DNA from: a virus
Taxonomy: Duplodnaviria; Heunggongvirae; Uroviricota; Caudoviricetes
Virus record (IMG/VR): IMGVR_UViG_2579778989_000010
Length of the DNA: 14,491 bases
Strand: one strand, 5' to 3'
Numbering within the stretch: position 1 is the first letter of the stretch; each line of letters begins with the position of its first letter. The translations under genes and the position numbers were made by a program. The notes below the pieces were generated by a model. The model saw only the letters and a list, made by a program, of their open reading frames with translations. It did not search any database and was not told the DNA's origin. Shown one piece after another: positions 2,227 through 14,491 of this stretch.

Positions 2227-4281
2227 TTACGCGTTATTCACTTCCACCACGATACTGTCAATCAGTACCGGGTAAGTCGCATTTTTAGTGATATCGGTCA
2301 CGCGCAACTTGTCTGCCGTAAACGTGCCGACCGGAGACTGCGACAGCATGAATGGTGTCCCGTCCTTACCATCAATGACCGGCGTCACCTCAATACTGTT
2401 GTTACCGGCAAAACGGAAGCCCAGCGTATGCCATTCGTTATTAAATGCGCCGAATGACCCCAGCTTCGTGTTCTGCGCCGTGTTTCCTTTGTGATACATC
2501 ACGTTAAGGTCTGTGGCATCGCTCTGTACGTAGAACGATGCCAGCAGGTTATGACCGGCATTTCCTTCCAGAGTAACCCCTTGCGGCAGGGCAGAAACCG
2601 GCCAGTACAGCGCCAGTGCGTACTGATTAGCCGTAAGCGCGCCATCGAGTTTAAAACGACAACTGACAAGACCACCTTTACCCAGCAGGTCCGCACCATT
2701 ACCAGCATCATGCTCAAGGTACCAGGGGGCTCTTCCTGTTTCCTTGGTCAGTTTCATTGCCTTACCCCCGCTGGCTCCGGCATCATCCACGATTTGAGCC
2801 TTGCCACCTCCGGCAGCCCAACCCTGTGGTGTCAACCGTCCTTCAGACTCAGATGCCCGGTAAGCAAATAGCGTACTCATCGTCGTGGTGTCTGCGGGTG
2901 GCGTGGACGGTTTTGATGGTGTATCAGGTGACGGCTTCTCATCCGGTGGTGTCACGGTCTGCCCGCGCATCAGTTCAGCCGTGCGCCCTGCATGGAGCAT
3001 AATAGCTGAGGCCAGACGGTCTGAAATGACGCCCCTGCGTGCCCATGAGCTGAAATGGCTGTCACGCTGTGTCGAAACAAAACTGCCCTGGGTTCGGGAT
3101 GCTGCACCGTAATACCCGACAGCCACAATATCCGGGTCTTCCGCCGGAGCATTCGTTGGCGTGCTCTGTCCATTCTCATCCGTCAGGAACGGTACAAAGA
3201 AAATTTTCTGTGCTTCCTTGCCTTTGTAGCCACCGTATACTGCCTCATATTTATCGGTGCCAGCGTTTTTCCAGTAATACGTGGTATCACCGCAAATCCA
3301 CGGCACCGTGGTGGCATTTCCACTCACGCACTGCGCAGCAAGCGGAGCCAGGTCAGTTCTGAACTGCTGAACCATGGCCGTGAATAAACTATTATGCTGC
3401 TGGCTTCCTGAGGCAAGGTCTGCCTCTCCCTGCATCCAGACCACAGCCAGAAGTTTGTTTTTCGGGTTTTTCGCCAGCGCGACTTTGGTGCGGCTTACCA
3501 GGTCCTGATACAGAGGTTTACCGGCCCCCCAGCGTGAAGAATCAGCGGAAGCACCGCTGGCCTCACTGAATGAGCCGTCGGCTCCAGTGGTGAATGCTGA
3601 CCCGCCACGACAACAGGGCACCAGAAGTATCCCGGCATTCTGTGGGATATAGGGAAGCAGTTTTTTGGCAATATGCAACCCCTGACCGACAGTCCCGTAC
3701 TGGCCTTTTGCCAGATCAGCTTTCGGGTGGTTTATCCCGCTCATATCCTGAACATCATGCAGGCAGTGGTCTGCCGGAATGATGTCGTTGTATGTACACG
3801 ACGTACCGTTGGGCGTTACCGTACTGCGGCGTGCCAGTTGCTTAATGCGTGGGTCCGGGCGGTCAAACGAATCCGGTAACGGCAGCCCCTCGCCGTAGGC
3901 CATGCCATTTGACTGACCCGCGAGAATGACAACAAAGTAATATTCCGGCTCTGAACTGCTGCCATTCGTGCTACCGGAAGGCCCGGCGTTATCCGGTGCA
4001 TTCCAGTCGGAGGGCGTGAGCGTTCCGGCCACGTCAGATGTGATTGGAATGATGCCAGTCACGCCTGAACTGGTGATTTCTGCACTGGGATTACCGGATA
4101 CCGGCATTACCCATAATGGCTCTTTCGTGCTGAAGCGGATCACGCAGTCTGCGAAGGTGATCCCCCCTTTATTACCCGAAGGGCGGAAAGGGCTTTCAAT
4201 AAATGCCACCGTGCCACCGGCAACCTTGACTGAAAACTCTCCGGGCATGGCGGAGAGCATTTTCCACTTGGAGTCTGACAT
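2227..4281 (-). CDS. SASA/SGNH-family esterase (sialate O-acetylesterase-like; architecture resembles prophage NanS-p), 684 aa
   Basis: SGNH/SASA-like motifs in order: ILAGQSNGMAYG (block I GQSN), VWMQGEAD, RDSHFSSW (candidate DxxH block); N-terminal ~100 aa and C-terminal ~250 aa extra domains; Shine-Dalgarno is weak. Confidence 0.65.
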   Translation of the reverse strand: MSDSKWKMLSAMPGEFSVKVAGGTVAFIESPFRPSGNKGGITFADCVIRFSTKEPLWVMPVSGNPSAEITSSGVTGIIPITSDVAGTLTPSDWNAPDNAGPSGSTNGSSSEPEYYFVVILAGQSNGMAYGEGLPLPDSFDRPDPRIKQLARRSTVTPNGTSCTYNDIIPADHCLHDVQDMSGINHPKADLAKGQYGTVGQGLHIAKKLLPYIPQNAGILLVPCCRGGSAFTTGADGSFSEASGASADSSRWGAGKPLYQDLVSRTKVALAKNPKNKLLAVVWMQGEADLASGSQQHNSLFTAMVQQFRTDLAPLAAQCVSGNATTVPWICGDTTYYWKNAGTDKYEAVYGGYKGKEAQKIFFVPFLTDENGQSTPTNAPAEDPDIVAVGYYGAASRTQGSFVSTQRDSHFSSWARRGVISDRLASAIMLHAGRTAELMRGQTVTPPDEKPSPDTPSKPSTPPADTTTMSTLFAYRASESEGRLTPQGWAAGGGKAQIVDDAGASGGKAMKLTKETGRAPWYLEHDAGNGADLLGKGGLVSCRFKLDGALTANQYALALYWPVSALPQGVTLEGNAGHNLLASFYVQSDATDLNVMYHKGNTAQNTKLGSFGAFNNEWHTLGFRFAGNNSIEVTPVIDGKDGTPFMLSQSPVGTFTADKLRVTDITKNATYPVLIDSIVVEVNNA

Positions 4282-5982: not shown

Positions 5983-6231
5983 TTATATACTTGCAGCCGT
6001 CACCCATGCTTCATTTAACAGATACTGCAACGGCCGGTAATACACGCCGCCGACGTTATCTGCCGTATTCTTACCGACATCCTGTACTTTAATTCCGGTA
6101 AGAACATTGCCGCCCCCCAGATTCAGATCCCAGCTTTCCCATGTTCCGGGCATATGTGCGGTCACCGACCCCAGTCTTATGGCGGTTAATGGCGTTTTCC
6201 CCGCCATCAGCGATAAAGCCCTGCCGGTGCA
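5983..6231 (-). pseudogene. start-less open frame of unknown origin, possibly a C-terminal remnant of a late (tail-fibre-related) gene left at the deletion junction
   Basis: Frame open for 82 codons from a stop at 6232-6234 with no upstream partner; overlaps the gemA-like ORF's 3' end in another frame; Gly/Asn/Val-rich like fibre C-termini. Weak. Confidence 0.25.
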
Positions 6232-6481
6232 TCACTTTCCAGATGGCGCGAATTTTGGCGGTCACCGTCCCCGGTTTTAAGGCCCGGTTAACCGGCTTCT
6301 GACGCACTTTAAAACCGCGTTTTTTGAAAACATCCAGCACGCGGGATAACTCATCCGGTGACATATCCCGGCAACTGGGTTTGCCGGTGGCTGCCAGTAG
6401 TACGGATGTGTAGGTCTCATGGTCAAGCTGTAGATCGCGTTTTGCGACATGTATTAAGGTAATCAGGGAAGCGCGATTCAT
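6089..6481 (-). CDS. gemA: GemA/gp16-like early protein (DUF1018-like); C-terminus probably altered by the deletion junction
   Basis: MNRASLITLIHVAKRDLQLD...GKPSCRDMS...KIRAIWKVMHRQGFIADGGENAIN matches the Mu-like gp16 pattern as I recall it; the last ~25 residues lose the expected pattern; GGAGA Shine-Dalgarno. Confidence 0.5.
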   Translation of the reverse strand: MNRASLITLIHVAKRDLQLDHETYTSVLLAATGKPSCRDMSPDELSRVLDVFKKRGFKVRQKPVNRALKPGTVTAKIRAIWKVMHRQGFIADGGENAINRHKTGVGDRTYARNMGKLGSESGGRQCSYRN

Positions 6482-11001: not shown

Positions 11002-11274
11002 TTACCCCTGCTGATTAAATTCATTACCGTTAATAACCCCGGAAGCCATGCCCCTGTCTTTCATGAATGCACTGGCTTTCATTGCCACAAGCTCTGCGAA
11101 GTTTCTGCTTTCCGCGAGCATAACCACCCCAAAAATCATGGCGGGGCCATCACCTTTCTGCTTTATCCCCGTTGAACGTATGTCCAGACTTACCCCCATG
11201 CGCACTGTTCCATCAGCGTTTTTATGGATAACGTGCTCCTTATATTCGAAAATAATGTGTACGACTTTACTCAT
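11002..11274 (-). CDS. hypothetical early protein (90 aa); N-terminal motif shared with the downstream gene
   Basis: ATG overlaps the upstream stop (ATGA); similar first ~18 residues to the downstream gene. Confidence 0.45.
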   Translation of the reverse strand: MSKVVHIIFEYKEHVIHKNADGTVRMGVSLDIRSTGIKQKGDGPAMIFGVVMLAESRNFAELVAMKASAFMKDRGMASGVINGNEFNQQG

Positions 11275-12044: not shown

Positions 12045-12977
12045 TCACACCTGTGAGAGTAATTCAGGGTTGGTATAAACCTCTTTAAAGGCCGCATTAA
12101 TATGTTTTTCTGTCAGCGCCGCGCCTTCACCGCTGGCGGTGAGCCACGCCTGGTTAAGCGTATGTGTCAGAACGCGTAACGCTCCCGGCTTTTCAGCGAT
12201 AGCCTGCATGACGGCCAGCTCGGCCTCACCACTGATCCCCCACGCCATGGCAATGGCCAGCACATCCGCCTTTTTGGCCTTGCGAAGTTGTTTTGTACGG
12301 GCAAGACGGCTGAACAGGCGCGATAAATCATCAAAGGCGCGGCGTCCACCTTTAAACAATCCGCGCGGGTTACCAATAAGCACCATCCCGATCCCCGTGG
12401 CGTCCTGAATTGCCCGGAGTTGCTCCAGACCGTCAATACCAAGATGATCCGCCTCATCCACAATCACCAGTCCACGCGTTCCCATCAGGCGACGGCGGAT
12501 GGCGCGGGATAATGCCCCTTTGTTCGCGCGGGTGTAATCAATCCCCAGCGCATCGGCCAGCTCCAGCAGACACTCCGTGACGCTGGAGTGCGCGGGTGAC
12601 AGGGTGATCATCCAGGTGTTTGGTTGCTCCTGGCAGTAATTACGGGCAGTGGCCGTTTTACCCACACCCGGTACGCCCACAATAACGTTAATACAGCCCA
12701 TCAGGCGAACCGCCTGAAACAGTGCGCGCAGCTCCTGGACTGTCTGAGTTTCCACAAACTGCGGCGGTTCCGGCAGTGCGCTTTGTTTATTCCAGTTCTC
12801 ATACCAGGAGCGCAGGGAAGCAGCCACAGCAGCGTTATCGCCTTTATATTTTCCCTTACGGAAAGCCGATAATGTGCCGTCGGAAATTCCCGCCTCTCTG
12901 GCGATGGCATACTGCGTCAGTACGCCGCCATCAATAAGTTCATCAATGGTCTTGATTACATCGTTAATATCGGTCAT
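12045..12977 (-). CDS. B: MuB-like AAA+ ATPase (transposition target-DNA activator) with N-terminal HTH
   Basis: Walker A GVPGVGKT, VIVDEADHLG (Walker B), KPGALRVL, and N-terminal GISDGTLSAFRKGKYKGDN all parallel Mu B; ~310 aa versus 312 in Mu; GAGGTGA Shine-Dalgarno before ATG 12977. Confidence 0.85.
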   Translation of the reverse strand: MTDINDVIKTIDELIDGGVLTQYAIAREAGISDGTLSAFRKGKYKGDNAAVAASLRSWYENWNKQSALPEPPQFVETQTVQELRALFQAVRLMGCINVIVGVPGVGKTATARNYCQEQPNTWMITLSPAHSSVTECLLELADALGIDYTRANKGALSRAIRRRLMGTRGLVIVDEADHLGIDGLEQLRAIQDATGIGMVLIGNPRGLFKGGRRAFDDLSRLFSRLARTKQLRKAKKADVLAIAMAWGISGEAELAVMQAIAEKPGALRVLTHTLNQAWLTASGEGAALTEKHINAAFKEVYTNPELLSQV

Positions 12978-13059: not shown

Positions 13060-14491
13060 TCAGGCCAGCGGATCACTTTCTTTTAATTTCGCTTCGAGCA
13101 ACTGCAATCCCCGCTGGAAATTACGCTCGTATTCTTCATCAGGTTCATCGTCAGCGACCGGTTGCTGAACGGTCACCGTATTACCCACAGGGCGGTATAT
13201 GTTTTCCAGCCAGGGCTCCTGCGGCTTGTGCTCCAGCACGTTGACAACCTCATCCTCGGCATCACGGATTTTTTCCTCTGCGCGTTTACGCATGCCTTTA
13301 AGGCGCTGCTGCTGTTTGTAGTATTCCGCGCTGACAGGGAAGGCTTCGCGTTTATTGCCGTCCCATATCCGAGTAATACAGAAACGGTTTGCCATGATGG
13401 CGAATACCGTGCTGTATGGCACCGGCTACGGCGAAAACATTTTCAGCCAGGTCAAGGCTCCAGCCCACCACAAAGCGCGTGCCACCGTCGATAACAAAGG
13501 TCACTTCCGGTGCGAATGGCCGCCCGTGAACCGGGTGCGCGCATTTCAGCTTCATGCCGTGACCGTCACCAATCCAGACATAATTCACCGGCATTCTGGA
13601 CCAGTCGCGGCGCGTGAATCCCTCAAGCTGACGGTATTCACTGCCAGTTACCCGGCCTTTTTGTTTCACCACTTCCGGCAGTTTCTTCATTGCGCGGCGA
13701 ATGGTGTCATAAGAGGGCATGATATCGAGCATATAAGGCTCATCAGCGTGCCGGTGCTGCCATTCAGCAACAAAATCCTCGTAAGCCTCGGTCATTGGTC
13801 GGCCGTTTGACTGGCGATACTGCGCCAGAAATTCGGGCAGCCAGTTAATATCTTCGGCTTTTATTTCCTGGCGTTTACCCGGTGCCAGTAAAAGCAGGCG
13901 TTCAGCGGCGTTCTGTGCCTTGTTAAAGGCCGCAATCCAGCGTTTCAGCGTGATTTCACTCAACGCGCGGCTGTTTCCCTTTTTGGCGTTCGCCGTCTCA
14001 ACCATTGCCACAATGCGCTCGTCCAGTTGTGATCGTGCCAGGCTGTTAACGAGGAACCGGATAGCCTTAGCGCAACTAAAGCCGGGTTGTTGCGCGATTT
14101 TCAGCACCTCGCTGACGATCGCTATTCGTGCCTCTGCCACTTTACGTTGGTTTTCAGTCAGGGCATTGAGGCGTTCGACCATCAGTTGGGGTGATCCGCG
14201 ATATGCCTCCACCGCATCAACCACGGCAGGTGAGCGTCTGGCCTTTGTCACCACCGGAGCCGGTGATTCATCGGCTTTTTGCGTCATCAGTTGCAGGGCG
14301 TAGCGTTCACGTAATGCCTGCTGCGTCACTTCAGGTAAACAGTCGATGCTGTATTCAGTTGCTTTAGAGCCTGAGCGACGACGGGAACAACAGCTTTTCC
14401 CTTGTACGTAACGTTGTAATGCCTGGCGAATACCTTTTGTTGTAGCAGGCATTCCGGGCGCGCCAATCAGTTCTTTTGCAATGACATACAT
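13060..14491 (-). pseudogene. A: MuA-like DDE transposase, 5' end at or beyond the window edge, disrupted by an internal deletion and frame change near 13340-13430
   Basis: N-terminal 379-aa frame aligns with MuA from the N-terminal DNA-binding region through the first two catalytic Asp regions (NYVWIGDGHG..., FLYYSDMGRQ) and then hits a stop at 13352; a second frame (13060..13422) encodes the MuA C-terminus (EYYKQQQRLK..., PVGNT..., DDEPDEEYE). About 200 residues including the catalytic Glu are absent. Confidence 0.7.

Follow-up and report, generated by a model that had tools for sequence, protein, structure and literature searches.

A 659-bp internal deletion in the transposase gene of a Mu-like prophage in Escherichia coli

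Prophage decay by deletion is a well-known phenomenon (reviewed in PMC6379469). In grounded prophages, a mobility or replication gene is dead and further genes are deleted. Such an element no longer changes its site and passes vertically to descendants, with its cargo and immunity genes kept. The prophage that we describe here resembles them in these respects. Shortened transposases are also known as inhibitors: Tn5 Inh and the P-element KP repressor keep the parts that are needed for DNA binding and multimerisation, lack catalysis, and are proven to be inhibitory. In the transposase of phage Mu (MuA), the catalytic triad is D269/D336/E392. Subdomain I-alpha of MuA acts at the enhancer, I-beta and I-gamma act at the phage ends, and II-alpha is responsible for catalysis, while II-beta and III-alpha are involved in DNA binding and assembly and III-beta in interactions with MuB and ClpX (PMC3362531).

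We analyzed a stretch of 14,491 nucleotides from IMG/VR (IMGVR_UViG_2579778989_000010), which we call the window. The window covers internal sequence of a Mu-like prophage in reverse orientation: on the minus strand, it runs from the ATG of the transposase gene A (14491) to the stop codon of mom (1–3). In contigs from public assemblies that carry this prophage, the genes are in a Mu-type order (repressor, ner, A, B, kil, gam, gemA, mor, late genes, invertase, and com/mom), and the Pfam domains called there are HTH_35 (in ner), Phage-MuB_C, Kil_protein, Phage_Mu_Gam, Phage_Mu_Gp12, GemA, Resolvase, Zn_ribbon_Com, and Mom. The repressor and ner lie upstream of the window and are intact in the carriers. 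Aside from the deletion in A, the early region is 99.9% identical across 8.3 kb to that of a prophage in E. coli JKHS016. Related prophages from eight further genomes (L010–L017) contain Mu tail and baseplate genes. The neighbourhood of ner, A, B, kil, gam, gemA, mor, gin, com, and mom is common to Mu and this family. There are also differences: the repressor of Mu resembles the N-terminus of its A protein, and no such similarity is found here; and Mu duplicates 5 bp of its target, whereas here we found a 4-bp repeat and ends of the form TG...TA.

As the reference for an intact A gene, we used the copy in E. coli JKHS016 (L001:3001-5091; 2,091 bp, 696 aa, 99.8% identity), which is annotated as a single “Mu transposase C-terminal domain-containing protein.” When this protein was compared to sequences from the PDB with phmmer, only retroviral integrase cores were found, and MuA was not reached at E ≤ 0.001. 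We established the relationship to MuA with BLASTP and MAFFT instead. BLASTP aligns the intact relative with MuA from end to end (E = 3e-10), at an identity of about 22–23%, and the intact relative shares MuA’s overall layout, the Mu DNA-binding N-terminus, the Mu-transpos_C barrel, and the equivalents of D269 and D336. Among more similar transposases, that of Yersinia phage vB_YpM_5 (which is placed in the genus Muvirus in its record) is full length and 78% identical, and those from Mannheimia and Pseudomonas are 45% and 32% identical. The closest known prophages are the Mu-like prophages of E. coli and Shigella, a family that is common in E. coli. The A genes of those in 248 complete E. coli genomes, O157:H7 strains among them, are 95–99.8% identical at the DNA level and are full length. 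The extreme C-terminus follows a different pattern: the transposase of vB_YpM_5 (L025:1475-3565) ends in MuA’s own C-terminal peptide (...EYETERDEYLNHSLDILEQNRRKKAI), and the tail of the E. coli family (...EYERNFQRGLQLLEAKLKESDPLA; 13060–13150 in the window) is unrelated to it. Because these tails differ, the part of the protein that contacts MuB and ClpX in Mu is mosaic.

In the intact relative, Pfam identifies HTH_Tnp_Mu_1 (PF02316, residues 6–142), weak matches to the integrase core (residues 324–426), and Mu-transpos_C (PF09299, residues 533–593, E = 2.1e-17). The N-terminal product of the window retains only HTH_Tnp_Mu_1, with a score above the gathering threshold in both proteins (E = 5.7e-7 for the window product and E = 2.2e-6 for the intact relative). 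The C-terminal frame of the window has no Pfam match. Mu-transpos_C is absent from both frames and lies inside the deletion. The D-D-E triad of the intact relative is D309, D375, and E415. In a MAFFT alignment of five sequences (the intact relative, Yersinia vB_YpM_5, Mannheimia 3927AP2, Pseudomonas MP22, and Mu), D309 and D375 fall in invariant columns and align with D269 and D336 of MuA. E392 of MuA is two columns away from E415 in this alignment, which we treated as a local misalignment, and we assigned the Glu from the alignment to integrases instead. In the phmmer results, residues 363–425 align with the core of avian sarcoma virus integrase, with D375 on the Asp of “TDNGS” and E415 on the Glu of “MVERAN.” We take these integrase residues to be D121 and E157. 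Of these three residues, D309 and D375 are still encoded in the window; the DNA for E415 and the rest of the core is absent, and with it the equivalent of MuA’s E392.

An ungapped base-by-base comparison gave the exact limits of the deletion. The window matches nucleotides 1–1126 of the JKHS016 gene with one mismatch and nucleotides 1784–2091 with none, and the only amino acid change in the native part of the protein is P328 versus L. Exactly 659 bp are missing (nucleotides 1127–1785 of the gene), which encode 220 residues (N376–V595). Because 659 = 3 × 219 + 2, the reading frame changes at the junction. The TA at 13366–13367 can be attributed to either side, so there is a 2-bp microhomology. 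The codon for D375 (13369–13367) is the last native codon, and it is followed by ATG GGA CGG CAA TAA (M, G, R, Q, stop). A separate frame, which encodes the MuA-like C-terminus, is open from 13422 to its stop at 13060–13062, and it keeps the last 101 codons of the gene out of frame; the two frames are open simultaneously over 13352–13422. Coordinates of the main features are given in Table 1. The first-pass annotation of this DNA had proposed an internal deletion with a frame change, with an N-terminal frame that reaches the second catalytic Asp and stops at 13352 and with a MuA-like C-terminus in a different frame. All of this agrees with the comparison to the intact gene, and the placements of the Asp and of the stop are exact. 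The loss of “roughly 200 residues” can now be given as 220, and the expected length of the intact protein (~660 aa) should be corrected to 696 aa.

Table 1. Positions of the main features in the window and the basis for each.
Feature	Position	Strand	Basis
Truncated transposase A frame, 379 codons	13355..14491	-	Translation; residues 1–375 are native, followed by frame-shifted MGRQ
Deletion junction in A	13365..13368	-	Ungapped left and right alignments to L001; junction codon table
Premature TAA stop, four codons past the junction	13352..13354	-	Translation
Out-of-frame remnant of the transposase C-terminus (W596–A696 of the intact protein, plus stop)	13060..13365	-	Translation; 0 mismatches to L001
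Intact B gene, 310-aa AAA+ ATPase with Phage-MuB_C	12045..12977	-	Gene calls and Pfam in L002; annotation of L001
Junction of the second deletion, gemA fused to a tail-fibre gene	6182..6188	-	Comparison with L005 (left side) and L011 (right side)

In terms of MuA, the lost stretch corresponds to residues 337 to about 558, which is the second half of II-alpha, including the catalytic Glu, and nearly all of II-beta. The C-terminal tail that remains aligns with about 559–655 of MuA (the III-alpha/III-beta region), and it is out of frame with the core and blocked by the premature stop. The deletion begins one base past the codon for the second catalytic Asp, and its other end coincides with the boundary of the C-terminal domain. 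It shifts the frame, so that translation halts four codons later. The sole product would then be a 379-aa fragment in which the DNA-binding domain is followed by one half of the RNase H-like core. Missing from this fragment would be the Glu, the rest of the core, the beta-barrel domain for target binding, and the C-terminal region, which contacts MuB and ClpX in Mu. The earlier claim that the region of the catalytic Glu had been removed holds, as E415 (which aligns with E157 of Rous sarcoma virus integrase) lies inside the missing DNA. We checked for a full catalytic core in a single frame, and neither frame has one; nor could a single ORF be restored by correcting one base, as 659 bp are absent. 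From the established mechanism of DDE enzymes and mutagenesis of MuA, we infer very safely that the 379-aa product cannot cleave or join DNA, which supports the earlier view that this transposase is very likely inactive. Judging from its sequence, the A gene in the window is the remnant of a MuA-family DDE transposase and not a functional member of that family. Without A, the prophage would be unable to replicate by transposition or to move.

The 659-bp segment encodes core sequence that is conserved in the transposases of Yersinia, Mannheimia, Pseudomonas, and Mu (MAFFT), so the window allele was derived by deletion and not by an insertion in the other genes. We looked for the segment elsewhere in the window, as would be expected after an inversion or a translocation, and the best blastn match was just 17 nt. 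There is no IS element at the deletion. At the breakpoints (4126/4786 of L001), the intact gene has neither direct nor inverted repeats that reach 9 nt. The inverted pair closest to them (I6, 12 nt) is situated 28 nt outside the breakpoint on the left and 48 nt inside that on the right, and the sequences around the two breakpoints are loosely alike (CGGATAATGG versus CGGTATGGG). Microhomology at the junction, which the first-pass annotation had recommended looking for, is limited to the 2-bp TA. At a random junction, a microhomology of at least 2 bp has a probability of about 0.16, so the TA is within chance expectation and says little about how the deletion occurred. The probable cause is illegitimate recombination, or end-joining, that used hardly any homology.

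We found the deletion in 10 of the 10 carrier loci that we fetched (L002–L007 and L018–L021). These loci are from isolate drafts at NCBI, metagenome assemblies at ENA, and Logan assemblies of read runs. The exact 379-aa product is present in 47 blocks of public assemblies. It also occurs on 30 contigs under protein records such as KDA86328.1, a “putative phage transposase” of E. coli 2-011-08_S3_C3; this carrier strain has the assemblies GCA_000713235.1 and GCA_000713355.1. The deletion allele was located solely via an exact-protein index. The 34-mer that spans the junction had no matches in GTDB species-representative genomes or in JGI metagenome contigs, so the allele is rare. We also searched 5,426 complete E. 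coli genomes with megablast. With a 1,592-bp query from the window, the gene was found in 248 of them; each match listed spans 2,240–2,252 bp and is split into two pieces, and the deletion is absent among the matches listed. With the intact gene as the query, at least 233 of the 248 gene-bearing genomes have 80% or more of it at a single place, and each of the 37 listed matches of full or near-full length is one uninterrupted piece. A search of the literature turned up no account of this deletion allele of A. The event is ordinary pseudogenisation and is nothing new in kind, and public databases already contain the protein fragments.

All of the carrier loci that reach the chromosome are in the spacer between aroM and ppnP. 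Loci L002–L007 share the flank sbcDC-araJ-mak-rdgC-ppnP, and L018–L021 contain the other flank, aroM-yaiA-aroL. The site is empty in E. coli Y5 and others. Relative to the empty site in Y5, the element is 15,841 bp, with the 4-bp sequence TGTC repeated directly on either side of it (L018:765-772 and 16606-16613). The insertions in E. coli JMF1 (L008) and in L013 likewise fit a duplication of 4 bp, for three cases examined in all. In nine independent insertions, the termini of the element are TGTAACC... and ...GCGCTATA (that is, TG...TA and not TG...CA). In the remnant, both ends are intact and contain repeated TTTGATACC motifs. The carrier flanks differ by 0–8 SNPs per 10 kb, and by this measure the carriers are one closely related, nearly clonal lineage. 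Near-identical prophages are found at unrelated sites in JKHS016, in JMF1, and in the eight further genomes (L010–L017). By this distribution of sites, the family is otherwise mobile. The 659-bp deletion is confined to the lineage with the aroM-ppnP insertion. With the transposase lost, the element would be inherited vertically at a single site. In summary, the prophage is defective: A is deleted, the region from mor to the tail-fibre gene is gone, the loci that reach the chromosome have the ppnP and/or aroM flank in common, and the carriers are nearly clonal. We conclude that A is very probably a dead pseudogene here, within a Mu-like prophage that is itself grounded and in decay.

We considered whether the true genome might have an intact A gene, with the deletion being an artefact of sequencing or assembly. 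E. coli genomes can have several near-identical Mu-like prophages, in up to four places, and these could confuse assemblers. However, to collapse the gene in this way would require a repeat at the breakpoints, and there is none. Furthermore, the identical 34-nt junction is present in six independently assembled loci from separate projects and assembly methods (L002–L007: two NCBI isolate drafts, two from ENA, and two from Logan), which differ from the window at 0–4 bases over the compared stretch (excepting L005 past its divergence at the second junction, described below). The other four loci (L018–L021), which we located via a truncated GemA protein, show a shortened spacing between ner and B or a gene call of 379 aa. 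We consider an artefact to be hardly credible. The gene might instead be a natural pair of ORFs that is joined by programmed ribosomal frameshifting, as in transposases of the IS3 family, because the N-terminal part of one protein is encoded in one frame and its C-terminal part in another that overlaps it. This is also extremely unlikely, and we rejected it: relatives at 95–99.8% identity have a single continuous ORF of 696 aa, and even if the two frames were fused, the protein would still be 220 residues short, with no E415, no beta-barrel, and an incomplete core. The overlap between the frames is a by-product of a deletion whose length is 3n+2.

A different question is whether the 379-aa DNA-binding fragment has been retained because it is useful. 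It might occupy the phage ends or the enhancer and so block incoming Mu-like phages or silence the remnant. The entire Mu DNA-binding N-terminal domain (PF02316) is kept, the native start is downstream of ner and of the early promoter region, the ORF is unbroken in every carrier that we read, and both ends of the element are intact, repeated motifs included. In its make-up, the fragment is similar to Tn5 Inh and to the P-element KP repressor, which is an analogy only, as nothing here indicates function or selection. However, given how few SNPs separate the carriers, the unbroken ORF is uninformative about selection, and the out-of-frame remnant of the C-terminus is just as free of mutations. 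Among the 250 complete-genome records that matched, we also saw no comparable truncation of independent origin. A protein that ends in half of an RNase H fold would probably be unstable, and the repressor of this prophage, unlike Mu’s, has no similarity to the N-terminus of A. Overall, we think it improbable that the fragment was kept for a purpose. More specifically, the fragment could be made from the early operon and act as a trans-dominant inhibitor of transposition that shields the host lineage from superinfection by phages of the same family; we give this idea, whose support is limited to the intact ORF and the intact DNA-binding domain, equally little credence. A dead pseudogene in a grounded prophage remains our explanation for the locus.

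After the loss of A, a second deletion would have stripped the late genes from the lineage of the window and reduced the prophage to a remnant of 15.8 kb. The second deletion joins gemA (a 130-aa remnant, 6089–6481 on the minus strand) to a 293-aa tail-fibre gene, which is entered at codon 226. The two sides share 7 bp (TAACCGC) at the junction; the probability of this by chance is about 4e-4. The mor gene and the lysis, head, and tail genes were lost with it (roughly 20 kb or more). Beyond the junction, what is left is one tail-fibre-assembly gene, a gin-like invertase, a 684-aa SASA/DUF6645 protein, com, and mom. The truncated GemA is found in 56 blocks of public assemblies. In one carrier locus (L005), A has the deletion and the prophage is at the same chromosomal site, yet gemA continues normally into mor, lysozyme, and Gp27. 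Because this locus has the deletion in A and lacks the second deletion, the transposase was apparently lost first. This order is suggested by one contig from one sample, and L005 could be a chimera of near-identical Mu-like prophages.

The family also includes a sister prophage in rhsD of E. coli JMF1 (L008:11337-12260). There, A is intact, and the late genes were lost independently, beside an insertion of IS903B. Hence, the family has decayed more than once and by differing routes.

The gene for the 684-aa SASA/DUF6645 protein, which resembles carbohydrate esterases, survives in the remnant between the gin-like invertase and com/mom (2227–4281 on the minus strand). Identical copies of this protein are present in 4,464 blocks of public assemblies, and in the places shown they are always within Mu-like prophages. 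This is probably a cargo (moron) gene. As another observation, the window has two bases, 24 nt apart, that are unlike every other carrier locus (11146 and 11170, within an ORF at 11002–11274 on the minus strand). L006 and L021 have tight clusters of their own, with 3–5 differences each. These clusters suggest gene conversion over short tracts, with other Mu-like copies as donors, rather than point mutation.

The deletion in A also changes what lies upstream of B. The start of B is now 374 nt past the premature stop, versus 82 nt past the normal stop. B has its own ribosome-binding site (GAGGTG). The 374 untranslated nucleotides do not have the composition expected for loading of Rho, which is C-rich and G-poor (they are 22% C and 29% G), so we do not predict a strong polar effect on B. 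Some carrier contigs have a gene call in this region: a 111-aa ORF from the ATG at 13395 (13060–13395 on the minus strand), which lacks a convincing Shine-Dalgarno sequence. From its translation, this “hypothetical protein” is merely the out-of-frame tail of the transposase. In newer NCBI annotation (L018), nothing is called between ner and B. As the repressor and ner are intact, immunity may persist.

Several of the deposited assemblies call two genes at this locus, which should instead be annotated as a transposase pseudogene in a defective Mu-like prophage. Because the ends of the element are intact, a related phage could, in principle, mobilise the remnant in trans. Both junctions are resolved to the base, and they could be used as markers for the clone of E. 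coli that has the remnant between aroM and ppnP. The locus is a clean example of the stepwise decay of a prophage, in which the mobility gene was probably lost first and the late genes afterwards.
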